A stretch of 38,422 nucleotides of DNA from a virus (IMGVR_UViG_2925919700_000005:1-38422), one strand, 5' to 3'; counted from the stretch's first letter, positions 1 through 34,609 are shown. Numbers and translations: made by a program. Notes: generated by a model from the letters alone, not told the origin.

Positions 1-10
1 CACCCGATTT

Positions 11-44
11 CCAATAAAAAAGCCCCATCACAAGGACAGGGCTT
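11..44 (-). terminator. Rho-independent terminator downstream of the 63..368 gene
   Basis: Inverted repeat AAGCCC (20-25) / GGGCTT (39-44); on the minus strand it is followed by a T-run (A-run 13-20 on plus). Confidence 0.5.
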
Positions 45-62
45 AGGAATCAATTACTTACA

Positions 63-368
63 TCACTTAATATCTTTCATTTTACGGATACGCGCGCTTG
101 CTTCCGGTAGTTCATCCAGTGTTACGTGATAAGCAAGCATACAGACAGGAGTCGGATCAAATCCCTCATGAGTATTGATCAGATGGCTATTCCCGCCTTT
201 AAACTCATCCTGTCCATCCCACATAGCGTACACGTCATCTTCTGCTACATAGATAATCAATCCAATAGGGGAGTTAGTAAGCTGGAAGATGCAGCCAGTA
301 GAATCAATGCGATGTTCCCGAACGTCATCAACAGTTTCAAAGTCAATCTTAATATCTTTAGTCTTCAT
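63..368 (-). CDS. hypothetical protein (101 aa)
   Basis: ORF with GAGGG Shine-Dalgarno ~7 nt upstream of the ATG (minus strand) and a terminator after the stop; no recognisable family. Confidence 0.55.
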   Translation of the reverse strand: MKTKDIKIDFETVDDVREHRIDSTGCIFQLTNSPIGLIIYVAEDDVYAMWDGQDEFKGGNSHLINTHEGFDPTPVCMLAYHVTLDELPEASARIRKMKDIK

Positions 369-667
369 GATTTGCCCTCGCGTGAAAAATATTTTCGATT
401 ATTTATAAAAAAGACTTGACAAAATCAAAAGGTACTGATCCACGGGTGAAATAAAGCGAGTTTTCGGCACCCCGGTTTTTGATGTGCGTGTGAGATTTCA
501 AAACAGGTGCAGTGCAGCCCACCAGCGCGGTCGCTACGCGACTATTAACACCAGCCAATCCCTTTCCTCGCCTCGATCTTTCCCTTCGTTATAAAGCGTT
601 TTAGGCGCTCTCCTGAATGCGCAGATCAGATAAATAATTTTACGCAAATTTAATGGAGGATAACCGG

Positions 668-1222
668 ATGAAAGAAGAATTAACCCTTACAGAAATTTCC
701 CGCTTATACGGCTATACAATTAACGCCGCTAAGAAATGGCAAGAACGAGGAATGCCATTTAACACCAATACACGACGCGTACCGCTCAAGGAAGGGACCG
801 AATGGATAGCAAAAAATATCATCAGTCCACTCAGGGAAACTACTGTCAAAGAACAAATTGACGTAGAGAAATTACGCCGCGAGAGAGCATTAGCGGACGC
901 AGCCGAACGAGAGAACCAGGAAGCAATGAATCTCCTGATTCCCGTCGGTTATATAGAACAGCAACTAGCGGAATATTGCGGGAAAGTGAAGCAGACTATT
1001 TTGCAGATCGCCACAATCGACGCTTTAGAAATTATCGAATCTGCCACTGACCAGAAAACATTGAAGAATAAGCTAAGGGAGATCATCGAGCGTCGTTTAA
1101 ATGAAGTAGGGGACTTGTTCGAAAATGCAGATTTGGGAGAAGACGAGGAAGAAGAATTACCATTAATGGATGAACCGGAAGAACAAGAACCAGAAGAAGA
1201 CGATGAATTTGATGTGTCTTAA
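668..1222 (+). CDS. terminase small subunit-like DNA-binding protein (lambda Nu1-like N-terminus, acidic C-terminus)
   Basis: N-terminus LTLTEISRLYGYTINAAKKWQERGMPF resembles the Nu1 winged-HTH (Nu1 has ...IRTIQNWQEQGMPV, recalled from memory). Start moved to ATG 668, which has a GGAGGA SD; the track start is 653. Confidence 0.55.
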   Translation: MKEELTLTEISRLYGYTINAAKKWQERGMPFNTNTRRVPLKEGTEWIAKNIISPLRETTVKEQIDVEKLRRERALADAAERENQEAMNLLIPVGYIEQQLAEYCGKVKQTILQIATIDALEIIESATDQKTLKNKLREIIERRLNEVGDLFENADLGEDEEEELPLMDEPEEQEPEEDDEFDVS

Positions 1223-1316
1223 AACGCGTTATAAATAATAGTGAGAAAGATGTTGAACGGGTCAACGTCTACGGGGGAGAACATCCCCCGCTTAACTTTT
1301 AAGAGGATATAAAACT

Positions 1317-1601
1317 ATGGCTACTTTTATTACCTATGCTGTCATCATTACTATTCTGGCTGCTATCTCTGCTTATAAACTCGGAACCGAACCGAAAGAA
1401 CGAGGCGAATTATTCTTAGGTGCGTTTGTTGCATTTGCTAGCCTTGCGTTAATTGTCGAAGGAATTTCTTATATTGTTGGCCTAGTTAGTATGACACTTT
1501 TTAACTTCCATCCAACTATTGCTATGCATTTGATGCTGACCGTACTTTGGGTATATTGCTTAATCGAATTTTTAACGTTTGTTTTCAAACAGACTAAATA
1601 A
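1317..1601 (+). CDS. small integral membrane protein (94 aa)
   Basis: AGAGGA SD; translation is dominated by hydrophobic helices. Confidence 0.6.
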   Translation: MATFITYAVIITILAAISAYKLGTEPKERGELFLGAFVAFASLALIVEGISYIVGLVSMTLFNFHPTIAMHLMLTVLWVYCLIEFLTFVFKQTK

Positions 1602-1758
1602 TATTGTAATCTGCCATTTCTCCTTATGTGGTTTTAACAGGGAATTTTCGAAAGAGAGTTCCCGATTAAAAGCCATAAAACACATTCAGTACAGTGTTTT
1701 CATAGTCAGTGACTATACAACATAAAAACATAACAAGTATAGATTGAGTATTAATCCT

Positions 1759-1785
1759 CCCGCCCTTCGGGGCGGTTATTTTTCT
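1759..1785 (+). terminator. Rho-independent terminator (UUCG-loop hairpin + T-run)
   Basis: CCCGCCC-TTCG-GGGCGG followed by TTATTTTT. Confidence 0.7.
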
Positions 1786-1851
1786 GGCTTTACTAGATAA
1801 TGTAGCATTATAACCTCATCTTTGTTGTGCAAACCTAACCTAAACTTACTA

Positions 1852-1877
1852 GGGACTCTTCGGAGTCCCTTTTTTTA
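1852..1877 (+). terminator. Rho-independent terminator (UUCG-loop hairpin + T7)
   Basis: GGGACTC-TTCG-GAGTCCC followed by TTTTTTT; abuts the 3' end of the leftward gene 1875..2816. Confidence 0.7.
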
Positions 1878-2816
1878 TTGGCAGTAAGAAAAGTTAGTAC
1901 CGTACATTTCATCATGAAGCATTGCAGCATTGCGTTTCTGTTCTTCTTCCTCATCTTCTACATCACTAGAAAAATGAGATTTGCCCTTAAAAGAACGAAG
2001 TAATTGCAGTGCAGCCATCGGATCACGCATCACATCGATTTTCAATTCTACTTCATCATTTGCGGCCTCATCAGCCGCGTTTTCAACTACTGCTACCGGA
2101 GCAACTTCTTTAGCTTTCAGTTCTTCAATCTCAGATTTCTGTGCTTCGATAATCTGGTCTTTTTCTTCCAGTGCAGCTTTCAGTTCTGCGATCTGTGCTT
2201 CCAGTGCAGCAAAGCGATCTTCAACAACCGGAGAAACAGCATTCACCTGTGCTTCCAGTTCCAGAAATGCTTCGCAAGATTCAATACGTTCTTTCTCTTC
2301 ACCTTCATAAGCAACCAGTTCTACAACTTCTTTTTCGGTAGCGTGGCTGTTAAAGAATACAGCAAAGTAAGGATTGCCAGATTTAGTGAAGTTCAGTTTA
2401 GCTTTTCCGGTAACTTCTTTACGACGACCGAAGGTGATCTGGCAATCAGCGGTATCCTGAAAATCCATGTTAGGAGCGGAAACGATAGCAGTATCACCAG
2501 CAATAACCAGGTGGAACAGTTCAGAAGAGTTCTTAACGGTAAAAGTAACGATGTGGTCTACTGCAACGTCTTTAGCAGGTTTAACGCGGTCGATTGCTTT
2601 ACGAATGCCGTTAGGCAGTTTACCGTCAACACCAAAGCCAGCCGCGATCAGTGCTTCACGATGTGCTTTAAAGCCAGCGAAAGCGGATTTCTGCTGTGCA
2701 AAGGAAACATGAGCAACAACTTTCGGCTGAATCTTCTTGTTTGCTTCTGTGCCAAATTTGATAACTGCTTTAGCGTTGGTTACTTCGTTAGTGAAAAAGT
2801 TAGCGGAAAATAACAT
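1875..2816 (-). CDS. hypothetical protein (313 aa) with central coiled coil and acidic C-terminal region
   Basis: Long ORF with strong AGGAG SD 9 nt upstream of the ATG; heptad-like segment EAQIAELKAALEEKDQIIEAQKSEIEELKAKE; plus-strand ORFs inside it are treated as shadows. Confidence 0.7.
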   Translation of the reverse strand: MLFSANFFTNEVTNAKAVIKFGTEANKKIQPKVVAHVSFAQQKSAFAGFKAHREALIAAGFGVDGKLPNGIRKAIDRVKPAKDVAVDHIVTFTVKNSSELFHLVIAGDTAIVSAPNMDFQDTADCQITFGRRKEVTGKAKLNFTKSGNPYFAVFFNSHATEKEVVELVAYEGEEKERIESCEAFLELEAQVNAVSPVVEDRFAALEAQIAELKAALEEKDQIIEAQKSEIEELKAKEVAPVAVVENAADEAANDEVELKIDVMRDPMAALQLLRSFKGKSHFSSDVEDEEEEQKRNAAMLHDEMYGTNFSYCQ

Positions 2817-2859
2817 TATAAATACTCCTGTGGAAAGTTAGTTTTAATTGTTCATTTCA

Positions 2860-2899
2860 AGCCTCCTTTGCTGCAACAAGGGAGGCTTTTTCTTTTTTA
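2860..2899 (+). terminator. GC hairpin with T-run between two leftward genes (plus-sense terminator or mRNA structure)
   Basis: AGCCTCC ... GGAGGCT followed by TTTTTCTTTTTT. Confidence 0.4.
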
Positions 2900-2928
2900 A
2901 AGCCATCATATAATTCTCAGTCAAAGTA

Positions 2929-3111
2929 TTAGTAAACCTCTGCGGTTATCTTTACTTTAATGTCATACTTCTTTAAGAGTTTGTGGAAGGTTGATTGATC
3001 AATACCTTCACCTTTAAACCATTCACCCATCACTACATCAGGTGTCAGTTCAAAATAACGCTTTGCCATTTCTAAAACGATTTCACGAGTGAACTTAACA
3101 GGTCGTGCCAT
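2929..3111 (-). CDS. small hypothetical protein (60 aa)
   Basis: AGGAGG SD immediately upstream (minus strand); ATATAAATAATAGTGAG box ~55 nt upstream. Confidence 0.55.
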   Translation of the reverse strand: MARPVKFTREIVLEMAKRYFELTPDVVMGEWFKGEGIDQSTFHKLLKKYDIKVKITAEVY

Positions 3112-3246
3112 CTTGAATCCTCCTAAATCTGGATTAATGATTTCTTAAAAAAGAGCGTTAACCGCTCACTATTATTTATATGGGGATTGTATTTTATTTT
3201 TCAACCCCTCACACTTATCTCTTATATATGTATTTATAACAGAGAT

Positions 3247-3403
3247 ATGTTAAAATGTTATTCAGATGTTATCAGACGTGTTAAATGTGTTAAACCGCAG
3301 CACGAATTGCTAAAGCGGAGAGCACGAATTAACCAAATTGATGTATATTCAATCAATTTAGCAAAAAGGCATAGCACTTTTTGCTAAAGCGGTGAGCATT
3401 AAT
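3247..3403. repeat. Phased TGTTA repeats plus two ~24-bp direct repeats (TTGCTAAAGCGG(A/T)GAGCA...)
   Basis: TGTTA recurs five times at ~9-12 bp spacing (3248-3293); TTGCTAAAGCGGAGAGCACGAATT (3307-3330) and TTGCTAAAGCGGTGAGCATTAATT (3380-3403). Confidence 0.6.
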
Positions 3404-3630
3404 TGAGCTATGAATTGTAAAGATTTGTTACAAGATTTTCTCTCAGATCCAAATCTTCACAGGCATATAACAATTTAACACGGTGATAACAATAGGAAGG
3501 AAAATCGGTAAATTTTCACTTTCAATACAAATATTATAACATATTTATCTCGAATTTTCAAGTATACCACCGATCCTACACAGTGTCAACAAAGGATTTT
3601 CAAACCTACACTAGCCCTACACTATGAAAA

Positions 3631-3870
3631 TTGCCCCTGAATTTTGCCCCTGAACCAAAATCCCCTAGATTTCACTATCCCATTTTTGCCCCTGAAACCT
3701 ACTATTTTTGCCCCTGAAATTCTGGGAAACAGTGATTTTGCCCCTCATTTTTGCCCCTGAAATGCCAATAATTGCCCCTGAAAATCTAATTTTTGCCCCT
3801 GAAATTTGCCCCAGAAAAGGATTGGTGAGAAAAACTCTTTATAAAACATTAACTTAGCGAGGGGCAAAAG
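3631..3870. repeat. Iteron-like array of ~9 direct copies of TTTTGCCCCTGAA with one inverted copy
   Basis: Copies at ~3631, 3642, 3683, 3705, 3736 (variant CTCA), 3748, 3772, 3790, 3805 (variant CCAGAA); inverted copy GAGGGGCAAAAG at 3859-3870; spacers are 10-30 bp and irregular. Confidence 0.8.
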
Positions 3871-4012
3871 CGGGGGATCGGGTGTGCATAGATATTATAT
3901 AACACATTCGCTACGCTCATGTGTAAAACCAAAAACAACAAATAACCAAAAAGATATTAGGAGGGCGTAGCCCGACTGCGCGAAGCGCTAACCAATTACT
4001 TCTAGTAACACT

Positions 4013-4240
4013 AATTTAAACTAGATGATACTAGATGGTCTTAGAAGGAATTAACTAGTTTGCTCGCTCGCTTCGCTCACTCTCAAACGTCTGCGACGCC
4101 ACTGCGTGGCATCGAGAATCACTTCTGAAAGGATTTTCTTGAAAGGGATTTTAAACTAGTTACTAACTGATTCTAGAAAGATAGTAATAATCACTTTGAA
4201 GATAATAGTAGTTAACTGGTTACTAGATGATTCTAGATCA
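4013..4240. repeat. Three copies of a ~17-25 bp ACTAGATGAT(A/T)CTAGA-type direct repeat flanking a GC-rich structured core
   Basis: ACTAGATGATACTAGATGG (4020-4038), AACTAGTTACTAACTGATTCTAGAAAG (~4153-4180), AACTGGTTACTAGATGATTCTAGATCA (~4212-4238); GC-rich inverted repeats in 3961-4110. Confidence 0.6.
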
Positions 4241-4266
4241 CTTTAATGATCATGAAAGGTATTGGT

Positions 4267-4296
4267 TATCCCTTCGGGATTGCAACCTTCGGTTGC
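4267..4296 (+). other. Two tandem UUCG-tetraloop hairpins
   Basis: ATCCC-TTCG-GGAT and GCAACC-TTCG-GTTGC back to back. Confidence 0.5.
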
Positions 4297-4500
4297 TAAA
4301 TTGCTTCCGGATTATTATTTCTCCAAAAGAAAGATTCTTATATTCTAAAGATACTTCTTCGTTTTGATGATGATTTAATCAAAATCTATGAAGGAGGCGA
4401 AGCCGACTGAATACCAATTCCTTTCAAATTAGACAAAAATTTCTCGTTATAAATAATAGTGAACTTACTTTGATTCACTTTCTTTTAGAGGATTTCCACT

Positions 4501-4953
4501 ATGATCAATACTAAAACTCCTTTCATTCTTCTGGGTCTGAACCATGATGATAATCTGGCTATGATGCATGTTTTCGCTAATCGTGGTTATAACATCATTC
4601 GTCATTCCGAAGACTCCAATTTCTCAACTGCTTTCTATGCTCTTAAACGTAATGGTCGCCCTACGGTGATCGTAGACTGCTTTACTGATGAAGGTCGTGA
4701 ACAATACAACAACATTCCGGCAATTATTGTTCGTGATGACCTGCCGTTTGATGTTCGTGAATATGACGTTGATTTAGGCTCTTACTATGGGATCGCCGAT
4801 CTTGACCAGATTATGGCTGATTATGGTAAACAACCCGCTCAGGAAGCCCCAGAACACGATGAACAAGACGAAGATGACGACGACTACACACCAATCTGTT
4901 TCTCTTCTCACGGTGGCTTCTACGGTTACGATGAAGGCTTAGATATGCTGTAA
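4501..4953 (+). CDS. hypothetical acidic protein (150 aa); N-terminal pattern faintly resembles a receiver/flavodoxin-like fold
   Basis: GAGGA SD; CGTTATAAATAATAGTGA box 40 nt upstream; C-terminal run EHDEQDEDDDDY; alternating hydrophobic strands FILLG / YNIIRH / VIVDC / PAIIV. Confidence 0.6.
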   Translation: MINTKTPFILLGLNHDDNLAMMHVFANRGYNIIRHSEDSNFSTAFYALKRNGRPTVIVDCFTDEGREQYNNIPAIIVRDDLPFDVREYDVDLGSYYGIADLDQIMADYGKQPAQEAPEHDEQDEDDDDYTPICFSSHGGFYGYDEGLDML

Positions 4954-4975
4954 TTTAGGTCAACCCTTTGGCGTC

Positions 4976-5017
4976 TTGTCAAGGGGTATTGACAAAATTT
5001 TCTGACTTTTTTATGAT
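4976..5017 (+). promoter_or_regulatory. Sigma70-like promoter (TTGACA, 17 bp spacer, TATGAT) overlapped by an inverted repeat TTGTCAA-N6-TTGACAA
   Basis: -35 TTGACA at 4989-4994, -10 TATGAT at 5012-5017; inverted TTGTCAA at 4976-4982; further TTGACA-like boxes at 5026 and 5045. Confidence 0.45.
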
Positions 5018-5073
5018 TATCGCACTTGACAATTTTGAACCTATTTGACCTAGATTTGTAAAGAGGATGTAAC

Positions 5074-5406
5074 ATGAAAGAATTTACCATCACTAAATCC
5101 CTGTATGACTGGACTGTTAAAATCTCCGGCAAAACCGTTTCTGTAAGCCCTAGCCATGTAGAAAATGATTGGGGCGTATCCCGTGAAACTATCTCCCGTA
5201 GTATGCATGTTCCGTTTGATCTGATGTCCTTAACTGGTATTCATGCAATGCTGGAAGTTCGCGAACAATTCGAAGCTGGTAATCACAATGCGACTCCAGT
5301 TAGCAATCACCTTCTTACTAATGAAGAACGTGAAATCATCGAAAACTGGCGTTATGAATATGCGATTCCTTATTATGAAGAAGACCAAGTAGAAATCGAT
5401 TGGTAA
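5074..5406 (+). CDS. hypothetical protein (110 aa)
   Basis: AGAGGA SD; compact ORF; no recognisable family. Confidence 0.6.
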   Translation: MKEFTITKSLYDWTVKISGKTVSVSPSHVENDWGVSRETISRSMHVPFDLMSLTGIHAMLEVREQFEAGNHNATPVSNHLLTNEEREIIENWRYEYAIPYYEEDQVEIDW

Positions 5407-5502
5407 TAAATTTCTATCATAAATAAAAATGTTCCGGTGGTGATGCCGGAACTAGGAGGACCAATATCATTATCGCAAAACCGTTTAAGGGGAATTACTA
5501 CT

Positions 5503-6333
5503 ATGAATACTGTTACTGCTATGAATACTGCTGTTAAAACTGCTTCCGTGTCTCTGGTTGTTGATAACACCAAACCGCTGACCATGTCTACTTTGCAGAT
5601 CGCGCAAATGATGGATCGCGTAGACCGCCACCGTGATATTAAGCGAACTGTTGACCGTCTCGTTTCTTCCGGTGTAATTGTCCACACGCCAACGGCGCGC
5701 GAACAACTGGAAGATAAATTTGGTCGTTCTCGTGAAATTGAAGTTTATCTTCTTGATGAACGTTCGTCATATATTGTTGTTGCTCAAATTTCGCCAGAAT
5801 TTACCGCTTTTATCGTTGATGAATGGAAGCGACTGAAAGAAGAAAATGAAAAACTTCGCTCTACTCCGGTTAACCCGTATGCAGACTTTGAAGAAACCGA
5901 TTGGATCGAACTGGCATTAAAGAAAACTCGCGAAAATAAAAAGCTGATTGAACTTCATGTTCGCAAATCCGTAGATAGCCATTCAATGACCCGTCTGTTA
6001 GGAGCTAAAAAGGGCGCTACGAAGGTTAAAGAAGCACTGACGGCCTTGCGTACTGCTGGCTACATTGAGCGCGTCTACGATGAAAATAACAAGCCGTGTG
6101 GGTATGTTGCTAATGACTCTTCTCTGTCTTTCTGCCGCATGAATGCTCACTACCAACTTGAGTTTACTGTTGATGTTCTTCCTGTGCTGGTTGAATTGGG
6201 TGTTCTGGAAGAAGAACAAAAAGCAACTCTGAATCTTCCTAAGCCGAACAACACTATTCTGATTCAAAATAAAGCTGCTAAACAGATTCGTGAATCAGGT
6301 AACGTAATTTCCCTTGTTGATTTTGGGATCTGA
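5503..6333 (+). CDS. Rha-family phage regulatory protein / antirepressor-like
   Basis: N-terminal segment LTMSTLQIAQMMDRVDRHRDIKRTVDRL matches the Rha-type DNA-binding pattern as I recall it; start chosen at ATG 5503 (AAGGGG SD) rather than the track's GTG 5437. Confidence 0.55.
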   Translation: MNTVTAMNTAVKTASVSLVVDNTKPLTMSTLQIAQMMDRVDRHRDIKRTVDRLVSSGVIVHTPTAREQLEDKFGRSREIEVYLLDERSSYIVVAQISPEFTAFIVDEWKRLKEENEKLRSTPVNPYADFEETDWIELALKKTRENKKLIELHVRKSVDSHSMTRLLGAKKGATKVKEALTALRTAGYIERVYDENNKPCGYVANDSSLSFCRMNAHYQLEFTVDVLPVLVELGVLEEEQKATLNLPKPNNTILIQNKAAKQIRESGNVISLVDFGI

Positions 6334-6339
6334 TTAATC

Positions 6340-6374
6340 GCCCGGCGCATAATTGCGCTGGGCTTTTTGTTTTT
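6340..6374 (+). terminator. Rho-independent terminator
   Basis: GCCCGGCGC-ATAATT-GCGCTGGGC (one G-U pair) followed by TTTTTGTTTTT. Confidence 0.7.
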
Positions 6375-6469
6375 ATAGATAACAGCATTTTTGCTGGCAT
6401 CTATAGACCAGTCAAGATTTGGACTCAGCTTCGAGATGAGCGCAGTTTTGCGCCGATTGTTTTACATAC

Positions 6470-6493
6470 AAAAAAGCCACTCCGAAGAGTGGC
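6470..6493 (-). terminator. Rho-independent terminator for the leftward gene pair
   Basis: GCCACTC-CGAA-GAGTGGC preceded by A6 on plus (T-run on minus). Confidence 0.65.
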
Positions 6494-6508
6494 AAAGAGA
6501 ATCAAAAC

Positions 6509-6742
6509 TCAAAAACCTGTTGCTTCTACGATCTGACCATCACCGATCTGAACATAGAATTTAATGTCTAACTTCTTAATATTCTTATAGAATTGGGCGA
6601 TTGAGATCCCATGTTCACTAAGAATCTGTTCTTTCGCTTCCTTACCACGATCCGCTGTATAATAAGCGTAGGCAATATCAGCCATTTGTTCAGCGTTAAA
6701 ACGGGCAGGACGACCGCGAGTAGCTTTAGTAGTCATAGTCAT
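6509..6742 (-). CDS. small basic protein with RGRP (AT-hook-like) motif; putative DNA-binding
   Basis: GGAGA SD; N-terminus MTMTTKATRGRPARF. Confidence 0.5.
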   Translation of the reverse strand: MTMTTKATRGRPARFNAEQMADIAYAYYTADRGKEAKEQILSEHGISIAQFYKNIKKLDIKFYVQIGDGQIVEATGF

Positions 6743-6770
6743 TTCTCCAAATTAAAGTGAATGTTCACCT

Positions 6771-7373
6771 TTATTTAGAGGACTTACATTTTATCGGAAA
6801 AAGTTCTCCATCGTCAATACTCATAAAGAACTCTGCCTTAATCCCGTACTTCTTCAACCGTGAATAGTATGTACCCCGACTTATATCAACCTTGCGAAGC
6901 ACTTCAAAGAACCCTTTAGGATCGTTGTAATAGTGGCTATAACGCACGTTAGCGAGTTCAACGAATAGTTCCCTTGTATCACCATAGCCTTTCTTGAAAG
7001 CCTCGTTACGATAGCGTGTAATTGCGTGATTCAATCTCTTCTGTTTCAACACTTCTCGGATCGGCTTCCACTGCAACCGATAGATAGGACCGTCATCCAC
7101 TCGATAATAACGCTTGATATCAAAATCAAACCAATCTCGGACTCTCCGAAACTCTGTATGTGATGTTCTATGCTTCTTAAAGAAGTTGTGAACGTCTGTA
7201 TAACCATTATCGCGGTAAAACTCTATTAAAATCTCTTTCGCTTCCTCACGACTAAAGCCAGATGTTGTGTAGTCGGTTTTTAAATGCTTATGCTTAACTG
7301 GTAAACGATATTCATGATCGGTACAAGACAAGGCTAATTCTAATTCATCTCTTTGTTGCTGATTAATTAGCAT
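6771..7373 (-). CDS. hypothetical protein (200 aa), transcribed divergently from the terminase large subunit gene
   Basis: AAGGGGGG SD upstream of the ATG (minus strand); basic and Tyr/Arg-rich; no recognisable family. Confidence 0.6.
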   Translation of the reverse strand: MLINQQQRDELELALSCTDHEYRLPVKHKHLKTDYTTSGFSREEAKEILIEFYRDNGYTDVHNFFKKHRTSHTEFRRVRDWFDFDIKRYYRVDDGPIYRLQWKPIREVLKQKRLNHAITRYRNEAFKKGYGDTRELFVELANVRYSHYYNDPKGFFEVLRKVDISRGTYYSRLKKYGIKAEFFMSIDDGELFPIKCKSSK

Positions 7374-7458
7374 ACAACCCCCTTTAATTAATACCCGTAT
7401 TTATCAAAATATCAACAATTTAATAAATACCTTCATATTTCGTAATGAGGGTAATTAC

Positions 7459-9363
7459 ATGAAACTGATTTCAAATAAGGCAAAATTAAAAAAGATTCTT
7501 AAAAATATCTCTGCGGCAATTCGCCCACCTAAAACGATGAAACCTAGCGAATGGGTAGAGGCTAATGTAGTTGCAACCGATGGTGTTAAAGCCGGATCGC
7601 TAATTAAATTGCATCCCTTCCAACGTGGAATGATGGACGCGATCACCGAAGACCGTAGAAAAATTGTGTTTAAATGTTCGGCACAGTTGGGTAAGACCAT
7701 GATTCTTAACGGAATTATCTTCCATCGGATCGCGAGTAACCCTACTAATATTGGGGTGTTGCAAAGTAACGTTAGAGAACTAAATTCTTGGATCGCTGGT
7801 AAGGTGAAGCCAGTATTAGAGGCAACGCCAGAATTAAAGGCGATGATCACCGACAAATCAGACCGTAATGCCGTTAACAACTCATCGATTATTCAGCTTC
7901 GTAACGGATCATTCATGTATTTCATGTCGCTGAACAGTCCATCACACTTGCGCGGTAAAACACTCCCTTTGATTATTCTTGATGAAGTTGATGCGGCTGA
8001 TGAGTCAGACGAAGGGAACCCGATCCAGCTAGCGGAACAACGCGCAACCACTTTCGGGGAAGATGCAAGGATCGTAATTGCTTCCACTCCAACCGCTCGT
8101 GATGGGGCGATTAACCAACAATGGGAACTCTCGGATAAGAGAAAATATCATGTCGTTTGCCAGCATTGCGGACACAAGCACGTAATGGAATGGAGTAACG
8201 TACATTTCGATTGGCATACGATTAACGGTAAATCATTACCCAACCCAGATACAGCCGTTTACCGTTGCCCTGAATGTGAAACCGACTGGACCGAAGGGGA
8301 TCGCCTACGTGCTGTTGCTCAGGGAGAATGGGTCGCCACCGAACCAAACGCGGAAGTAATCGGTTTTCATGCTAACCGCCTTATGTCTCCGTTTAGTTCT
8401 ATCCGTGCGTGTGTGGTGGACTTTGCTGATAGCTACGCGAATATGTCGCTGGCAACGTTCTATAATGTGGTGCTCGGTGAAACCTTCGATGATCTTAACG
8501 AAGACCGCACAGCCGACGAATTAGAAACGCTGAAAACTGATATTAGCCTAGACAATATTCCTGATGATGTACTGGCTCTGGTTGGTGGAGTTGACCAGCA
8601 AAAAGACCGTCTGGAATCTACCTTGCTGGGTATTTCTCGTAAAGGGCTATGCGTAGTTGATCACCGATCATTCTATGATGTGAACTGCGAACGCCACGAA
8701 TCACCAGCATATAACCAGCTTTACAACTTCCTGAAAGCGAAATTCTATACCCGATCCGGTCAACGAATCCCGATGTTATCTGCTTTCGTGGACTCATCGA
8801 ACGGACGAGCTACAAACGTGATCTATCGATTCTGCACACAATGGCAAAACCTAACAGCCATTAAAGGGGCAAGCAATGTTGATGCTCCAATCCTTCCGGT
8901 CAAGGACACAAGAACGGGTGGTTTTACTCTTAAAATTCTGGGCGTAAACAACCTTAAGACGATGATCCGTGAAATGATTAACCGGAACTTGAGAGACAGC
9001 GATCCTCATACGGTCTTCCAGATTGGTGACGTTCCTGATGACTATTGCGAGCAATTGTTATCTGAACAGTTGAAACGGCAGGGTAATACCACACGTTGGG
9101 TAAAAGTTGGTCAGCAACGAAACGAGGCTCTCGACTGCCTGGCTTACTCCTATGCTGCTTCTCGCCATGTACTCAATAAAATGTCATGGGAAAAACTCGA
9201 AGCCATCAAAGATAGTTTGAACCGTGAACCAGAAGAACCCGTAGAAGCTCCTAAATCGCAATCTAACGAGCAAATAGAAGAAACTAAGCCAATCACACGA
9301 CCGCAACGTCAAAACATCGCCAGACGTCCAAATAGAGGCCGTAGCTGGGTAACATCGTTCTAA
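7459..9363 (+). CDS. terminase large subunit (lambda gpA-like ATPase/nuclease)
   Basis: Walker A CSAQLGKT and Walker B LPLIILDEVD; Cys/His cluster CQHCGH...CPEC; 634 aa, immediately upstream of the portal gene. Confidence 0.9.
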   Translation: MKLISNKAKLKKILKNISAAIRPPKTMKPSEWVEANVVATDGVKAGSLIKLHPFQRGMMDAITEDRRKIVFKCSAQLGKTMILNGIIFHRIASNPTNIGVLQSNVRELNSWIAGKVKPVLEATPELKAMITDKSDRNAVNNSSIIQLRNGSFMYFMSLNSPSHLRGKTLPLIILDEVDAADESDEGNPIQLAEQRATTFGEDARIVIASTPTARDGAINQQWELSDKRKYHVVCQHCGHKHVMEWSNVHFDWHTINGKSLPNPDTAVYRCPECETDWTEGDRLRAVAQGEWVATEPNAEVIGFHANRLMSPFSSIRACVVDFADSYANMSLATFYNVVLGETFDDLNEDRTADELETLKTDISLDNIPDDVLALVGGVDQQKDRLESTLLGISRKGLCVVDHRSFYDVNCERHESPAYNQLYNFLKAKFYTRSGQRIPMLSAFVDSSNGRATNVIYRFCTQWQNLTAIKGASNVDAPILPVKDTRTGGFTLKILGVNNLKTMIREMINRNLRDSDPHTVFQIGDVPDDYCEQLLSEQLKRQGNTTRWVKVGQQRNEALDCLAYSYAASRHVLNKMSWEKLEAIKDSLNREPEEPVEAPKSQSNEQIEETKPITRPQRQNIARRPNRGRSWVTSF

Positions 9364-9435
9364 TAACTCGCCGTCCTTCGGGGCGGCTTACTCCTAAATA
9401 TTGTTAATCCAATAACAATTAAATAAGGGGTAATT

Positions 9436-9930
9436 ATGAGTTTAGAACTAATTCCCTTAGTAATTCGTAAAGGCGAAAAAATCACGCTGGCGAATGAAGA
9501 GGGTGTAACCATTCAGGTCGGAAATAGTAAAGCTATCGTTTATCAAGTCGATGATGCACCGGAAAATCACGAGATTAAAACATTAGATTTTGCCGAGGGT
9601 AAATATACCATCGTAATAACTTTTGATGAAGAACTGGTATCAATGCAGGAATTAACTGTTTTACCAGTCTTTGCCAAACAATCCAAAAAACAGTATCTGC
9701 GGGAAACTATCGCCTTAATCGAGCAAGTTATTTTCGCCCGTTTATCTGGGGACGAAGCCGCATTATCTGCAATGACCGTGAAAGGGAATACTTTCGCCTA
9801 TGAGTCATTGGGTGTTCTCCAGACTCTAAAAGTCGATTATGAACGTCAGTTATCTAAAGTAATTCAAGCCGAACGACGTAAACAGGGAATTAGCCCTATT
9901 AAAAATATCAAATTACGTCTTACGCGATAA
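9436..9930 (+). CDS. hypothetical head-assembly region protein (164 aa)
   Basis: AAGGGGTAATT-ATG initiation region; lies between the terminase and portal genes. Confidence 0.6.
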   Translation: MSLELIPLVIRKGEKITLANEEGVTIQVGNSKAIVYQVDDAPENHEIKTLDFAEGKYTIVITFDEELVSMQELTVLPVFAKQSKKQYLRETIALIEQVIFARLSGDEAALSAMTVKGNTFAYESLGVLQTLKVDYERQLSKVIQAERRKQGISPIKNIKLRLTR

Positions 9931-9940
9931 GGGGTAAATC

Positions 9941-11452
9941 ATGTTTAATCTTTTTCGACGCAAAAAGGCGGTAGAAACTCCAGTTAAAACTAATCACCGC
10001 CAGCAACAACAAAAAATCTTTATCGACAAACAAGTAGAAAAATTCCAGAAAGATTTGTCTAAGCGTTCTTTGGGCTTAGTCGGTGATCGCATTGATGGAC
10101 AGCTTCAACAAGACACCATTACAGGAACCTTCAATAAGGCTCTCAAATCGAACGGTAAGCGCCTTTATGATCAGGGTCGTACTCTGGCTATAAACAATGC
10201 TGTAGGTAAGCGATACAAGCAGTATATCGTTGACCAAGTTGTTGGTACGGGGCTTGATCCGAAACCATCAATCGTTAAATCAAATGGCAAACTTGACACC
10301 GCACTGAATAAGCAGATCGAGAATGCTTTCTGGAAGTGGGCGCAGAGTGCTAAACGCTTCTCTCGCAACGGTCGCTTTAACTTCCGTGAAATGCTGGCAA
10401 TGGCAGAATCTGAACGTGTTCAGGGTGGAGAATGCTTCATCGTTTTAACCAAAGAGAACAATGAGTTACAAGTTTCTATTCTGTCTGCTGATAGGTGCGA
10501 CTGGTCGCTTAGTCGTGAAATAAGCAAAGAACGTGCGATCTATCAGGGGATTGAGTATGACGTAGACACAATGCGCCCTGTAGCATACTGGTTTAGAAAA
10601 ATCAATCTACTGACTCAGACCTACACTGGCGAAAATTATCGCGTAGATGCTTCTCAGGTGTGCCACTACTACCAGCCACTGTGCGCGGAAAGTTTACGTG
10701 GTGTGACTGACTTCCTGCCAGTGATTAAGGATATTGCGCATCAAGAAGCGTTCCGCGAAACCGCGATCGTCCAGAAACGTATTGCGGCTAGTTCTATGGG
10801 CTTTATCGAACGTCCTAAAGATTCTGGTGACGATTTTGATACTGGTGAAGAGGATGAACAATATCAAGCGCCGGAAGTAGTACAGGACTTTGCACCGGGT
10901 ACTATTCAGGAATTGCCGGAAGGGGCAACAATCAAGAGCATTCAATCATCGCAAAATGGCGATGACTTTAACAGCTTCAATGATGCGATGTTCACTAGCG
11001 TATCAATGGGCTTAGGCGTGTTCAAACAGGGCTTAACAGGAGATTGTTCACAGATCAACTACTCAGCCGCACGTTTTGGTGAATTAACTCAGCGTAACCG
11101 CATTAAAGCACTGCAAAACAAATTAATTGAAACAGTGGTATTGCCAATTTTCGAAGCATATCTACGCCATTATTCCGCGCGTGGTATTGTTCCGATTCGT
11201 ATTACTGCAATTCCTCATATTATCGATAACACTACTATTATTCGTCCGCGTTTTGAATCCGTCGATCCTATTAAAGACGTAAACGCCGAGATTGCTTTAA
11301 TTCAAAATGGTCTTAAATCACGTACTGCTGTTATTCTTGAACGTGGTGATGATCCTGAAAAAGTATTCTCAGAGATTCAAGCCGAAAAGAGCGCACTAAA
11401 TATTATCGTTGATGGTGAGAGCAAGGATAACCCTTCTCAAACCGATCCCTAA
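9941..11452 (+). CDS. portal protein
   Basis: 503-aa ORF between the terminase large subunit and the protease/capsid gene, the canonical portal position; size and acidic C-terminus fit. Confidence 0.8.
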   Translation: MFNLFRRKKAVETPVKTNHRQQQQKIFIDKQVEKFQKDLSKRSLGLVGDRIDGQLQQDTITGTFNKALKSNGKRLYDQGRTLAINNAVGKRYKQYIVDQVVGTGLDPKPSIVKSNGKLDTALNKQIENAFWKWAQSAKRFSRNGRFNFREMLAMAESERVQGGECFIVLTKENNELQVSILSADRCDWSLSREISKERAIYQGIEYDVDTMRPVAYWFRKINLLTQTYTGENYRVDASQVCHYYQPLCAESLRGVTDFLPVIKDIAHQEAFRETAIVQKRIAASSMGFIERPKDSGDDFDTGEEDEQYQAPEVVQDFAPGTIQELPEGATIKSIQSSQNGDDFNSFNDAMFTSVSMGLGVFKQGLTGDCSQINYSAARFGELTQRNRIKALQNKLIETVVLPIFEAYLRHYSARGIVPIRITAIPHIIDNTTIIRPRFESVDPIKDVNAEIALIQNGLKSRTAVILERGDDPEKVFSEIQAEKSALNIIVDGESKDNPSQTDP

Positions 11453-11497
11453 TAACCAACGGGGGCGCAATGCCCCCAATTAATTAAAGGTGATTAA

Positions 11498-13507
11498 ATG
11501 CTTAAATTTCGCCGCGATCTTAACGGTTACGGTGGAGTTATTAACGAAGGGCATAACGATCAATACGAGTTTGAAATTGCTTTCTCAAGTACACAGCCTT
11601 ATCAGCGCCAATTTTGGGATGAGCAAAATCAAGAAATGGTGGTATTAGATGAAATTCTGGTACATACACCGGAAGCGGTTGATCTGTCTCGTCTGAATAA
11701 TAACGCTCCGTTGCTGTTCAATCATAATTTCGATAATCACATTGGTGTCGTTTGTAACGCTCGAATCGATGCGGATAACGTAGGCCGTGCTCTGGTTAAA
11801 TTCTCTAAGCATGGGACTTTGGCTAATGATATTCGTAATAAAGTCATTGAAGGTACGATGGAAAAAATTTCTGTCGGTTATGACATTAAAGAATATCACA
11901 TCGACTACGCTAAATCGCAACTCATTGTTTCTAAATGGATTCCTCACGAAATTTCGTGGGTCACGGTGCCAGCGGACGATTCGGTCGGTTTAAATCGCTC
12001 TCTAAATACTATCACAGTTAATTTGGAGGCTAAACGCGATATGACTAAAGAACAAATCGAACAAGTTAAAGACGAAGAAGAAAAAGAAGTCGCTCAGGTT
12101 GAAGAAACTCCGGTAGAAGAAAATAAAGAATCGGAAGTTGAAGAAACTCAAGAGCGCCAAGTTGAAGAGAATGAAGAAAATGAAAATCTCGAAGACGGAA
12201 AAGACGCTGAACATCCTGAAAGTGTTGATGATGATAGTTCAACTGTTCGGGAAGCAGAAGAAATAAAAGAAGAACGTGAAGCTGCTCCGGTTGAAGAAGA
12301 AAAAATCGAAGAAGTGGCTGAACGTTCCGAAGAAGACGAAGAAGAAATTCGCGAAATTGCACGCGAACTAAATATTGATGACGAAGAATTGAAACGCGCA
12401 TTGGCAAATAAAGAAATGACGCCGGAAGCATTCCGCACTAAGGCACTAAATAACATTACCAATGCTCAACGTAATAACGAACAAATTAAGGACTCTAAAA
12501 TGGAAAAAACTTTTGACCTGAACAACGTAATTCGCTCTCTGGTAGATGGTGAAGCTCTGGGTGCTAACGAAGCCGAGTTTTCTGCAATGGCTGCTACTGC
12601 AACTATGCAGCGTGGTCGTGCTGCTCGTGGTGGCTCTGTATTCGTTCCGGCTGCTGCTATGCGTGCTGCTGCTGCTGGTAACACCAAAGCCGATCTGACT
12701 GCTATCACCGACGAAAAACTGATGACTGAATCCTACATCGAAATGCTGATGCCGGAATCTGTTCTGGGTCGTCTGGGTGTGACTGTTTACAGTGGCTTGA
12801 ATGCTCCGACCGCTATTCCAAAAATGACTAAATCCAGCGTTGATGCTTTCGGCTTCGTTGATGAAAACGGTGCTGCGCCGGAAAGCAAAGCTGAATTTGC
12901 GAACGTGAAACTGTCTCCTAAGACTTTCGCTGGTGGCAACCCGATTAGCCGTCAGTCTCTGAAAACCGTTCCGGGTATCGCTACCCTGATCACTGACCAC
13001 ATTAACAAAGCTGTTCGTATCAAACTGGAACAACTGATTCTGTCTGACAAAGAAAATGCTCGTGGTCCGGCTGGTCTGGTTAAACAACTGGTAGACGGTG
13101 GTCGCGTAGAGAAGAAAGCTGCTTTCTCTTACAAAGATTTCCTGAAAGAAATTGCTAAACTGACCGACGCTGGCGTTCCTGCTCAGGCGATCAAGTTTGC
13201 GATGAGCGGTGCAACTGCTGCCGAACTGGAATCTACCCTGAAAGATAACGGCGTTTCCGGTTATATCATCGAAAACGGCAAACTGGCTGGTTACGAAGTA
13301 GTTACTTCTGGTGTTATTCCGGCAGATCACATCGTTCTGGGTGACTTCTCCGGCATCACTATCGGTGAGTGGGGCGGTCTGGAACTGGATATGGACGACA
13401 CTACCTACCGTGCACAGTCTGCTATCGTTCCGCGTATCTGGGTAGATCTGGATTATGTTGTTACTCAGCCGGAAGCTCTGAAAGTTCTTCACCTCTCCGC
13501 TGAATGA
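11498..13507 (+). CDS. prohead protease - scaffold-like acidic linker - major capsid protein fusion (HK97-type)
   Basis: N-terminal ~170 aa carry an S78-protease-like motif HEISWVTVPADD; aa ~190-330 are an E/K-rich coiled coil; the C-terminal ~330 aa look like an HK97-fold capsid protein; terminator follows. Confidence 0.75.
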   Translation: MLKFRRDLNGYGGVINEGHNDQYEFEIAFSSTQPYQRQFWDEQNQEMVVLDEILVHTPEAVDLSRLNNNAPLLFNHNFDNHIGVVCNARIDADNVGRALVKFSKHGTLANDIRNKVIEGTMEKISVGYDIKEYHIDYAKSQLIVSKWIPHEISWVTVPADDSVGLNRSLNTITVNLEAKRDMTKEQIEQVKDEEEKEVAQVEETPVEENKESEVEETQERQVEENEENENLEDGKDAEHPESVDDDSSTVREAEEIKEEREAAPVEEEKIEEVAERSEEDEEEIREIARELNIDDEELKRALANKEMTPEAFRTKALNNITNAQRNNEQIKDSKMEKTFDLNNVIRSLVDGEALGANEAEFSAMAATATMQRGRAARGGSVFVPAAAMRAAAAGNTKADLTAITDEKLMTESYIEMLMPESVLGRLGVTVYSGLNAPTAIPKMTKSSVDAFGFVDENGAAPESKAEFANVKLSPKTFAGGNPISRQSLKTVPGIATLITDHINKAVRIKLEQLILSDKENARGPAGLVKQLVDGGRVEKKAAFSYKDFLKEIAKLTDAGVPAQAIKFAMSGATAAELESTLKDNGVSGYIIENGKLAGYEVVTSGVIPADHIVLGDFSGITIGEWGGLELDMDDTTYRAQSAIVPRIWVDLDYVVTQPEALKVLHLSAE

Positions 13508-15317: not shown

Positions 15318-18300
15318 ATGCAGTCGATCCAATTTAAACGAACAAATGTTTCTGGCAAAAAACCAACGCCGGAACAATTACAGGTCGGTGAGGTGGCAAT
15401 CAACCTTAAAGACCATGTTATTTTTACCAAAGACCGAGATCATGAAGTAGTTCAAATCTCTGTTTCTCCTGAAACTCACGCGGCACTAGAATCTAAAGTT
15501 GATGCTAACAAACAAGAATTGGATAGCACAATTGCAGTAAATGACCGCAATATTCACGCTAAAGTAGATGAAATTAAACAAACTACTGATTCTACTATCG
15601 CAGCAAATCACGCAGAAATTAACAATAAAGTTGATGTAATTAAACGCGAAACCGACGCGACAATCGAGGCCAATAAAAATAAAGCTGCTTCCGATCTTGC
15701 TGGTGTTAAAGCTGAATTGTCGGATACTATCAACGCTAATAAAAATGCGGCTGCTGTAGCAACTCAGGAACTGGACACCCGCATCAATAAAAAAGTTGAT
15801 GATATTAAATCCCGTACTGATGCAACCATCGCAAGCAATCACAAAGCAATCAATGACAAGGTTGATTTGATTAAGGCAGAAACTGACCGCACTATCGCAG
15901 CAAATCAAGCCTATGCGGAAAATCAGTTAACTGACACCTACAATAACCTTACTGGTGTGATTGCAGCTAATAAGCAAGAGGCAGCGGATAGCGTCGCAGC
16001 ATTAACCCGTGATGTTGAAGCCAAAAATTCAGCAATTCATAGCAAAGTTGACAATAACAAGTCTTACACTGATTCTGAACTTGCACGTTTAGAAAGCCGT
16101 ATTGATGCAGCCGATGGATCTGCTGATGGCAAGTACATCAAAAAACACGTAAACACTTATACTGATGGTTATTTGCTGTCTAAGACCGCAAACTATTTTG
16201 ATGATCCAAATGCGCGTAATCTTAATTACTTTGGTGCATTCCGCATGAATGACCTGGCGGGTCATATTGCAATGATCTTGCATGTTCCGCATCCATCTGG
16301 TGTTAATCATGCTCGTGGCTTTGAGTTCACTTATGGGTCTAATCCGGTTCATACGGTAAGAACATACGGCTATGATGAATTGGGTCATTTGGCATATTCT
16401 CACCGCATGTATCATGAAGGTGATAAACCTACTCCTGCCGAAATTGGCGCATATTCGAAAGCAGAAATTGACCGACTGTTCCAGAAGACGCTTAATTTTG
16501 GGATCGAGGGTGGTTGGTTTAAACTAGGCACTTTGACAATGCCACAGCAACACGGTCGTAGTGCTAAGATCCGCTTAGTTGGTGGTAACGGTTATAACGT
16601 CGGGATGAATGGACAAGCCAATATTATCGAATTGGTGATTCGATGCGGCAACAATAGCCCGAAAGGTGTTGTATTCAATGCGTATTATACTATTTGGCAT
16701 TATGAACAACATTTTTGCGCTATTCCAACCGATGGCGACAATTACGATCTTTACGCTTACTACGGTGCACATACAGGATTTGTTTTAGCAGAATATCAAG
16801 TTTCTTCCGGTGGTGTTTCTTTAAACCTGTTGGATACTCCTGAATATCTGGGTGGTGAAAAACCTGTTGCAGATGAAATTTTTGATGCTCTTAACATTTC
16901 ATCGTTCACTAACTTTAGCAACCGTGGAACGTTAAATTTTGCGGGAAACCATCAAGGCCAATATGACATTGAGCATTTGAACGAACAACAAACTAACAGC
17001 AAAAAGATGTTGCGTCGCTTCCGTAGTTCTGCTCCTGCCACTATCTGGCATGAGACAGTTGATGATAACGCATATCGTCTTGCTACTGGATACGAAGATA
17101 CAAATCAGGAATTATTGCTGACAGCAACAACCGGGTTACATGTCAAGAGATTAACATTGGATGGTGGTGCTGCTGGTGGAAATGCTGGTATTGATATTCG
17201 TCGAGGACCAAACGAATCAAGCCATTTTAATTTTATGGATTATCGAACTGGTCAAGATGTTCGTAATGGCTGGTTTGGTTTTGGTGATTTGACGACCAAA
17301 GATTTTATTTGGTGGAACGATAACGGTCAAAACTCGATAAACTTGATCGAAAACGGTGAATTGCATATTACTGGCGGTAAAGGCCAGAAAATTGTAATGA
17401 ATAGCGAAGTTGCATTATCTGAAAATGCTCGTTTGGCTGTTAAAGGTGGCAATTATGGCTTAATTTTTAGAAATGATGGTACTGGTTTCCATATACTGAC
17501 TACCGATTTAAAAGATTCTTTTGGAAATTGGAATAATCGTAGACCATTCAGCTATAATTTTGATGATGGTGGACTATATTTAGGTGGCACTGAAACTGCT
17601 CGTTGTTTGCATCTGGGAATTGATGGTAGCACCCGTCTTGAGGAGAACTTAGTTTTCAGGGCGGGATCTCGTCAATCAATGGACTATATTGAAATGATCC
17701 ATTGGGGTAACAGTAATACCGCTCGTGACAACGTTTTGAGTATGAAAGACTCGAAAGGATTCCTTGCTGAATTTGAACGCGTGGGTGGGACTAACGGCGT
17801 TAAAACCAGATTCTTTGGTGAAACCTTCACTGACGGTACATTATACCTAAATCAGATGAATAATAGCTCTGAACGATTCTCTATCAACAATTGGGGAAAT
17901 TCAGAAGTTGGACGCGCGGCAGTAATGGAAATCGGTGATTCCAAAGGTTATCACTTCTATACTGAACGCAGGACAGATAACAGTTTGGCGTTTGATGTTG
18001 CTGGCGCTTTTACTGTGCATGGACCTAACGGAATAACCATCAAAAACTCAACTGGTGCACGCCATATCTGGTTTAGAGATGATAGCGATGCAGAAAAGGC
18101 TGTTATCTGGGCTACAGATGAGGGTATTTTACATATACGAAATAATCATGGGGGTTCATTTAGTCATCACTTCCAGGGTGCAATGATTAAAGCGGGAGAG
18201 CAAGTTCCTTATAATAGTGAATACGCTCTTATCCGTGGTGAGGTTTCTGGTGGTGCATGGGATGACTGGCGCAACCGTCCTGCTGGTATTCTCTTAGATT

Positions 18301-26118: not shown

Positions 26119-26164
26119 TCCCTTCTCCCTAAGCCTAGTAAATAACAGCATGGAGGTATTCAAC

Positions 26165-32364: not shown

Positions 32365-32396
32365 AACAAAAGCGCCTCTAGTGGGCGCTTTTTTGT
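32364..32396. terminator. Bidirectional rho-independent terminator between convergent genes
   Basis: AAGCGCC-TCTAGT-GGGCGCTT flanked by an A-run upstream and a T-run downstream. Confidence 0.7.
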
Positions 32397-34455: not shown

Positions 34456-34609
34456 ATAGACCTCACTTTTTTAACTTATAGGCATAACCTCAATATGGTT
34501 GGTTTGGGATTTAGGGTCGCGTATTATACACATTCAGATAGAGAATGCAATAGTAAGACAATTTTCTCTAATAAATAGTAGTGAGCTTATTATTTTAGAG
34601 GAAACTACT

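Follow-up and report, generated by a model that had tools for sequence, protein, structure and literature searches.

In nearly all tailed phages the genes for the two terminase subunits are adjacent, with exceptions such as PY100 and PaP3 (PMC3488191). This near-rule is widely used to annotate small subunits that are hard to recognise, and the DNA examined here departs from it. The window, by which we mean the whole of IMGVR_UViG_2925919700_000005:1-38422 (38,422 nt), carries a gene for a lambda Nu1-like protein (terS) and a gene for a lambda gpA-like large terminase subunit (terL) on the same strand, with 6,236 bp between the stop of terS and the start of terL. This separation, and the positions of the intervening features in a listing of open reading frames (ORFs), agree with an earlier interpretation made from the sequence alone (hereafter the sequence-only reading), which had put the two genes ~6.2 kb apart and called the DNA between them an accessory island. 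We consider it probable that the window is a complete prophage in which a split lambda-type terminase pair surrounds an early/origin block, with a conserved DNA element near terS acting as packaging site or terS promoter.

The product of 668-1222 is, as judged from sequence comparison, the cognate terminase small subunit, because its homologues abut or overlap the gpA gene in outgroup prophages; this gene neighbourhood is the strongest argument for its identity. Position 668 is probably the true start, since homologues start with MKEE and the ATG there has GGAGGA 7 nt upstream. The protein matched phrog_57 ('terminase small subunit') over its full length (residues 2-173, E 2.2e-16), and a profile search of 1.8 billion representative proteins returned 105 relatives, mostly of 160-200 aa, which align to it over residues 1-184. 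Among the aligned distant relatives, 23 of 53 match Pfam Phage_Nu1 (best E 9e-18) and 7 of 53 match DUF1441. A joint profile of the relatives matches PDB 6hn7_B at 2.7e-14 and 1j9i at 6e-12, and hhalign aligned the close family with lambda Nu1 at 89 % probability (E 2e-6) over the helix-turn-helix plus the next helix, ExxRLxRAxADAxE; the first 101 residues of the Nu1 sequence used for this agree with the PDB profile-search output. An AF2 model built on 14 family members has a winged helix-turn-helix (residues 9-60, pLDDT ~85), three long helices (45-157) and a disordered acidic tail that ends in EFDVS, conserved in the family alignment. The modelled helices and tail would fit an architecture of small-subunit self-assembly and large-subunit binding, and the best two Foldseek matches are 1J9I (the lambda Nu1 DNA-binding domain; root-mean-square deviation 2.3, 52 columns) and 6HN7_B (a phage TerS N-terminal domain). 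The exact protein sequence is not on record, a PDB sequence search with the single sequence gave chance matches only, and most clade genomes annotate the protein only as a 'hypothetical protein'. The sequence-only reading had also considered that the Nu1-like protein might be a diverged DNA-binding protein with another role, a view at odds with its full-length membership of a small-terminase family and with the overlap of its homologues with gpA in the outgroups.

The large subunit is clearly of the lambda gpA type, with matches to GpA_ATPase (5.2e-62; 210.1 bits, cut-off 25.6), GpA_nuclease (2.2e-45; 155.6 bits, cut-off 22.5) and phrog_15 (E 6e-141). Downstream of it follow, in order, a head-tail joining protein (phrog_5774, in the position of gpW), a lambda-type portal, a protease/capsid fusion and tail genes. 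The joining protein is the only same-strand neighbour of terL, with no rival small subunit there, and the genes 5' of terL lie on the opposite strand and gave no terminase signal in Pfam, phrog or NCBIfam scans. These searches yielded neither a non-terminase assignment for the helix-turn-helix protein nor a different small-subunit candidate beside the large subunit.

The relatives of these genes, whose loci were found with single-protein searches and a terL alignment, indicate how the separation arose. The pair is split, by gaps of 5-6.9 kb, in every relative with a TerL at least 45 % identical (in Escherichia, Salmonella, Buttiauxella and Atlantibacter). The 16 close E. coli/Salmonella loci have one constant gene order and a gap of 6.2-6.9 kb: terS, a variable slot, the ~320-aa leftward gene, the 60-aa gene and 1.2-1.4 kb of non-coding DNA, followed by the 150-aa gene, an optional 110-aa gene, the Rha gene, the 77-aa gene, the 200-aa gene and terL. 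Five IMG/VR contigs with more distant proteins (TerS ~40 %, TerL 46-51 % identical) are split by 5-6.3 kb; the intervening DNA encodes HNH endonucleases, endonuclease VII and Rha/Ant-like proteins and again includes a non-coding stretch of ~1.3 kb. The terL-alignment scan, with one genome per species, returned 35 loci, among which Buttiauxella gaviniae and two Atlantibacter genomes are split (TerL 45-53 %) and 13 other Enterobacterales loci have adjacent genes (TerL 37-45 %; Yersinia, Leclercia, Phytobacter, Rouxiella, Pseudocitrobacter, Enterobacter, Mangrovibacter, Buttiauxella, Pluralibacter, Pseudescherichia and Kluyvera). Alphaproteobacterial and other distant loci (TerL ~28-31 %) are adjacent too. 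In the adjacent loci the small-subunit profiles match an ORF whose 3' end falls inside the terL start or shortly past it, and the small subunit of the window finds the enterobacterial outgroup ORFs by tblastn with E-values of 1e-7 to 1e-18.

Because adjacency is the outgroup state, the split is, on this comparison of loci, the derived state, fixed across one clade. In the synteny comparison that the sequence-only reading had suggested, homologous terS genes abut gpA in the outgroups and are split from it throughout the clade of the window. Every locus of the split clade that shows both genes has the block between them, and no integrase, transposase or flanking repeats delimit it. Since the split occurs clade-wide, the block is not an accessory island; it is probably the phage's own early control and replication-origin block, not a recent insertion. 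The proposal that an early or accessory block had been inserted into the packaging operon therefore holds in so far as adjacency is ancestral and separation derived. Its 'accessory' part, and with it the title of accessory island, does not survive the finding that the block occurs in the same order in all clade members examined and holds the only candidate origin and regulatory genes.

The gap is laid out as two divergent operons around a non-coding region (Table 1). The sequence-only reading had recognised this region as repeat-rich but measured it at 1.1 kb, and its length is 1.39 kb. Within it, the intervals between TTGCCCCTGAA copies are 13, 21-22, 30 or 42-43 nt; the rest of the 38 kb has no exact copy. 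When up to two mismatches are allowed, the other sites are scattered and single, the total is 19 versus 8.8 expected, and no shuffle reached 19. The direct-repeat cluster has one orientation, adjoins an AT-rich stretch and is the sole array in the genome.

Across 14 typed loci, the type of iteron tracks the type of the ~320-aa leftward protein without exception, with three types in all. Type A, that of the 313-aa protein in the window, is found with TGCCCCWGAA in 4-8 copies (7/7 typed loci; 10/10 by homologue presence) and includes a Salmonella copy that is only 68 % identical across its N-terminal 229 residues. Type B accompanies CCTACAC in 6-12 copies (5/5 loci), and type C neither repeat (2/2 loci). 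Between the protein gene and the iterons lie the 60-aa gene and the left portion of the non-coding DNA, and these assort independently: loci L007 and L009 combine type A with a 58 % 60-aa allele, and L005 and L011 combine type B with a 93-98 % 60-aa allele. Simple linkage is therefore incomplete as an explanation, and the locus table rules out that the iterons follow the terS allele or the 60-aa allele. The co-variation, which is a correlation and not homology, suggests an initiator/origin pair; it is the pattern expected of exchangeable initiator/origin modules, and it makes the 313-aa protein a candidate iteron-binding initiator. Further to the right in the non-coding region (~4386-4412), a conserved TGAAGGAGG is followed by a short hairpin and then by an invariant GACTGAA. 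The hairpin stem changes compensatorily in relatives (GGC-GAA-GCC, GGGC-TTT-GCCC, GTGC-GATA-GCAC), and the site is possibly a structured one in the leader of the rightward operon.

A different conserved sequence accompanies terS itself. Conservation 5' of terS starts abruptly at TTGACA (415), and the element that follows has a core of AGGT(A/T)CT, ~22 variable nt, GCGAGTTTTCGGC and a T-rich/GTGTG segment, placing it 130-235 nt before the small-subunit start. An nhmmer profile of this element, constructed from 11 seeds, gives one upstream match per locus, always on the + strand and 5' of terS, whether the terminase genes are split or adjacent, and it also matches outgroups left out of the seeds. 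One locus (L023) has a borderline extra match (E 0.006) just downstream of terS, and the profile has no match near terL in split genomes. A strict version of the pattern matches the window once versus 0.03 expected, and the terS leader gave no significant RNA fold (z = +1.6) and no credible Rfam match. We infer that the element is a candidate packaging-recognition site (cos/cosB-like) or a candidate late promoter/activator site. Visual inspection shows some resemblance to the lambda cos junction AGGTTAC-GGGGCGGCGACCT-CGCGGGTTTTCGC. The block GCGGTCGCTACGCGAC that follows the element is possibly a terminase or regulator site.

The arrangement of genes also bears on how terS is expressed. Terminator-like hairpins follow terS at 1272-1290, 1760-1775 and 1851-1870, and 5' of it, once the genome is circularised, lie a leftward gene, the attachment site and the integrase, which is also leftward. 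With a leftward gene upstream and terminator-like hairpins downstream, terS would lie outside the terL-to-lysis operon and be transcribed apart from it. A 15-nt motif, TATAAATAATAGTGA, has exactly three copies in the window (1230-1244 on the + strand, 3166-3180 on the - strand and 4448-4462 on the + strand), each 40-90 nt upstream of a gene start and partly conserved in relatives. Two of these copies mark both edges of the non-coding region, and the motif is probably a common promoter or operator of early genes.

If the 189-aa product of terS were instead an excisionase, a recombination directionality factor or a winged-helix regulator, packaging would be left to gpA alone or to an unrecognised partner. 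The winged-helix fold is common to Nu1, Xis and MerR, Xis and RdfS are among the weaker Foldseek matches, and on the circular map terS is near both integrase and attachment site. Moreover, in the profile search of 668..1222 that the sequence-only reading had proposed, the small-subunit family was found as described above, and Pfam PF07471 (Phage_Nu1) scored 15.2 bits, below its 30-bit gathering cut-off. However, the homology is full-length rather than limited to the helix-turn-helix, as both the phrog_57 match and the alignment of the relatives indicate, and the Nu1 match reaches into the ExxRLxRAxADAxE helix. The overlap of homologues with the gpA start in outgroups is the canonical small-subunit position, and no alternative small subunit was found by the phrog and NCBIfam scans or among the terL neighbours, so we regard such a role as highly improbable. 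A different objection concerns the block, which might after all be a dispensable moron or mobile element, with the real early functions at 32.4-37.5 kb (helicase, CapR proteins, integrase). Adjacency as the outgroup state implies that something inserted or moved, the GC content of the gap is lower than that of terL (0.32-0.40 vs 0.45-0.50), its content is mosaic and in distant clade members includes the HNH endonucleases and endonuclease VII, and the helicase is located outside it. Against this, the block is never absent and the backbone order is fixed in the clade members examined; it is bounded by none of the mobile-element hallmarks sought. It also holds the sole iteron array, the sole long non-coding region and the sole regulator-like genes of the genome, and the rest of the window yielded no candidate repressor, initiator or origin. 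A dispensable island is accordingly unlikely.

The iteron array could also be a small-subunit binding site or a centromere, in which case the non-coding region would be a packaging site (pac/cosB) or a partition site, with the virion ends then inside the gap. Small subunits do bind direct-repeat arrays, among them the R sites of lambda cosB and P1 pac, and the TTGCCCCTGAA array is unique in the genome. The type of iteron, however, tracks the ~320-aa protein and not the terS allele: L005 and L009 have similar terS alleles (86-87 % to that of the window) and different iterons, and the Salmonella locus L019, with a terS of 71 %, has the iterons of the window. It is a different element, conserved with the outgroups, that accompanies terS, and we find it unlikely that the iterons form a packaging or partition site. 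Together with the low Pfam score, the weak Foldseek E-values of the small-subunit model and this other possible use of the iterons, several observations weigh against the reading of a split terminase around an early/origin block. The phage collection contains no virion or induced phage of this family, and the tail module of the copy in the window is interrupted by an insertion sequence (IS). The 313-aa protein has no similarity to any known family or initiator by Pfam, phrog and NCBIfam scans, homologue search, tblastn against phages and PDB search (the latter two both empty); its homologue search gave E. coli copies at ~99-100 % identity only, among the matches listed, and its single-sequence AF2 model (pLDDT 45) is unusable. 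Linkage could partly account for the co-variation of neighbouring sequences, and the single DnaA box (TTWTNCACA) in the region is not above chance. The element upstream of terS could be a promoter and not a packaging site, and a profile comparison gives no statistical support for homology to lambda cos (E 0.76, at an unrelated position).

Under the favoured reading of a split terminase pair, the ancestor would have had overlapping terS and terL, as in present-day outgroup prophages, and a rearrangement in one clade would have put the early region between them, after which the layout became fixed. The packaging enzyme would be a lambda-type holoenzyme of Nu1-family and gpA-family subunits. The 6.2 kb block would provide early control and replication, its divergent operons, with their common promoter-like motif, flanking the origin-like region, and the ~320-aa protein encoded in the leftward operon would probably bind the iterons, as their co-variation suggests. 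The upstream element may be the site at which the small subunit nucleates terminase assembly (cos/cosB-like), or a promoter that sets when terS is expressed. The two subunits, each translated from its own transcript, may then assemble in trans, by analogy with other phages whose terminase genes are not adjacent.

Table 1. Coordinates of the features described in the text, counted from the first nucleotide of the window.
Feature	Position	Strand	Remarks
101-aa gene upstream of terS	63-368	-	ORF listing
Conserved ~100-nt element	418-523	+	TTGACA .. AGGTACT - ~22 variable nt - GCGAGTTTTCGGCAC .. TGTGCGTGTGAGATTTCAAAAC
Block GCGGTCGCTACGCGAC	524-539	+	Invariant between E. coli and Salmonella relatives while flanks diverge; partly palindromic
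Small terminase subunit, Nu1 superfamily (terS)	ORF 653-1222, start probably ATG 668	+	phrog_57
94-aa membrane protein	1317-1601	+	Downstream of terS; slot variable among relatives
313-aa protein	1875-2816	-	Beta-rich N-terminal part, coiled coil, acidic C-terminus; candidate initiator
60-aa helix-turn-helix-like protein	2929-3111	-	First gene of leftward operon; paralogue of 77-aa protein
Non-coding control/origin-like region, 1.39 kb	3112-4500		No ORF
AT-rich stretch	3200-3600		GC 0.32 (GC 0.32-0.36 over 3201-3800)
Three CCTACAC repeats	3573-3625		In non-coding region
Nine TTGCCCCTGAA iterons	3631-3816	one orientation	7 exact, 2 near
GC-rich hairpins, ACTAG-type repeats	3850-4330		In non-coding region
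150-aa acidic protein	4501-4953	+	First gene of rightward operon; no family match
110-aa protein	5074-5406	+	ORF listing
Rha/Ant-like regulator, 298 aa	5437-6333	+	phrog_63, E 5.6e-15
77-aa helix-turn-helix-like paralogue	6509-6742	-	BLASTP to 60-aa protein
200-aa protein	6771-7373	-	Divergent from terL; matches 77-aa paralogue
Large terminase subunit, lambda gpA type (terL)	7459-9363	+	Pfam, phrog_15; first gene of structural operon
Large serine recombinase (integrase)	right end of window

The leftward genes, membrane protein, acidic protein and Rha-like regulator that the sequence-only reading had listed in the gap are all present. Homologues of the Rha/Ant-like regulator have PF09669 on record, and its relatives are named 'Rha family transcriptional regulator' in RefSeq. 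The 60-aa and 77-aa proteins match each other by BLASTP (E 3e-6) with the common motif RP.(K/R)F ... Y..(L/I)KK.DIK, and the 77-aa protein has a weaker match to the 200-aa protein (E 6e-4). From these matches the three are assigned to a small paralogous family, in which the 77-aa protein links the 60-aa and 200-aa members; no family assignment was obtained for them. NCBIfam has no match for any gap protein, and the 150- and 200-aa proteins have none in Pfam or phrog either. Alleles among relatives range over 55-98 % for the 60-aa protein and 37-100 % for the 150-aa protein. The wide range of the 60- and 77-aa alleles is in the manner of immunity-type genes.

Further records contain terS homologues in other settings. 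PQ671644.1, 'Escherichia phage DCP80' (L001/L002), is labelled a T4-like Gaprivervirus of 141 kb. Its first ~26 kb (1-26300) encode a gpA terL at 44.5 % identity, a portal, tail proteins and an endolysin, with a homologue of terS (33 %) at 25760-26251, and T4-like genes begin right after; the record looks like a chimeric assembly of two phages, and terS and terL lie at opposite ends of its non-T4 part. In E. coli, at a different chromosomal site, an element in DAOCVT010000021 and ERR2019142_136 (L017 9989-18542 and L018 6379-14932) contains a terS at 54 % identity, the 94-aa gene, two leftward genes of ~370 aa each, a non-coding stretch of ~1.4 kb, homologues of the 150- and 110-aa genes and a truncated Rha gene, a set joined directly to the UvsW-like helicase and the CapR gene. 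It has no terL or structural genes, lacks GCGGTCGCTACGCGAC, and both contigs end shortly after it; either a deletion left it as a remnant or it is a satellite-like derivative. One could speculate, by analogy with the TerS/Rpp proteins of phage-inducible chromosomal islands (PICIs), that a self-contained replication and packaging-recognition unit, able to persist without structural genes, consists of terS, the element upstream of it and the early/origin block, and that L017/L018 is a possible satellite whose own small subunit redirects the gpA and capsids of a related helper. We think this doubtful; if true, the clade-wide split would be an architecture that eases the evolution of such piracy.

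As to the prophage as a whole, the window extends from attL to attR (~37 kb plus an IS) within E. coli ycdX. In strain ETEC1703 the match begins 22 bp past the truncated ycdX gene. The ycdX junction at the left and the serine recombinase at the right therefore identify the window as the whole prophage. Among 5,426 complete E. coli chromosomes, 63 match the window at 80-99 % identity. Cultured phages gave no megablast match to window positions 1-12000, and a literature search on ycdX prophages produced nothing relevant. Non-structural genes outside the gap are limited to those for an M15 endolysin, a UvsW-like helicase, two CapR-domain proteins and the integrase. The helicase, of T4 UvsW type (UvsW_N 2e-34), adjoins the CapR-domain proteins at 32396-35785, between the lysis genes and the integrase, and one CapR-domain protein also has a GIY-YIG-like MUG113 domain; for a temperate phage of 37 kb, a UvsW-type helicase with a CapR pair makes an unusual replication/recombination set.

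Some structural genes are also distinctive. A single 669-aa ORF (11498-13507, + strand) matches phrog_617 and phrog_4523 ('major head protein', 'major head and protease protein') and appears to encode protease, scaffold and capsid as one fused protein; the portal-to-tail interval has no protease or scaffold gene apart from it. A 1173-aa protein (15318-18839, + strand) matches families of T4-type long tail fibre distal subunits (phrog_1699, 5e-135), and its gene follows the head-completion genes and precedes the tail tube gene, an odd place for a fibre gene. A DDE transposase (PF01609, 1.5e-24; 20629-21837, - strand) lies within the tail cluster, with the tail tube gene on one side and the tape-measure region on the other. 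This transposase is missing from relatives, and the prophage copy in the window may be defective owing to the IS in its tail module.

Compared with lambda, in which the order is cos - nu1 - A, the window has the same families of subunits (a Nu1-type winged-helix small subunit and a gpA-type large subunit), a head-tail joining gene in gpW position and a lambda-type portal after terL, and a non-coding site upstream of the small subunit at a similar distance (lambda cos lies 190 nt before nu1, the window element ~130-235 nt before terS). In lambda, however, nu1 and A overlap (711 vs 736), whereas the pair in the window is 6.2 kb apart with the early region between; furthermore, the window element has no significant similarity to lambda cos, and the phage integrates by a serine recombinase. 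The enterobacterial outgroup prophages, for example those of Yersinia pekkanenii (L032), Pluralibacter gergoviae (L041) and Kluyvera ascorbata (L043), have terS at 24-36 % and terL at 37-45 % identity and the same upstream element, but their terS overlaps terL, and their serine integrase, where visible in the flank, lies ~9 kb upstream of terS. Since the split and adjacent states have the upstream element in common, comparing them could reveal which of the two genes, terS or terL, the packaging site goes with.

The predicted origin resembles iteron origins such as lambda O/ori and plasmid Rep/iterons in its short same-orientation repeats with roughly helical spacing, in the adjoining AT-rich stretch and in the modular way in which repeat sequence and neighbouring protein vary together. 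Unlike those systems, it has a candidate initiator for which no homology to O, Rep or any other family could be detected, and the predicted origin is intergenic and not inside the initiator gene. The three exchangeable protein/iteron pairs involve a protein family without known relatives.

Phages with separated small- and large-subunit genes offer the closest precedents for the layout itself. P2 is one of them, with M and P flanking the capsid genes, a different arrangement from a Nu1/gpA pair around an early block. Non-adjacent genes can encode a working terminase, as with orf1/orf3 of PaP3 (Pseudomonas) and ORF2/ORF18 of PY100 (Yersinia) (PMC3488191). The terminase genes of PY100 are on opposite strands, unlike the same-strand pair of the window, and those of PaP3 are one gene apart rather than split by an early/replication block. 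What differs here is a Nu1/gpA pair split by an early block, fixed clade-wide and with adjacent outgroups for comparison. That a fairly common prophage clade stably breaks adjacency provides guidance for annotation; it does not overturn current understanding, and widens the known range of packaging-module layouts.

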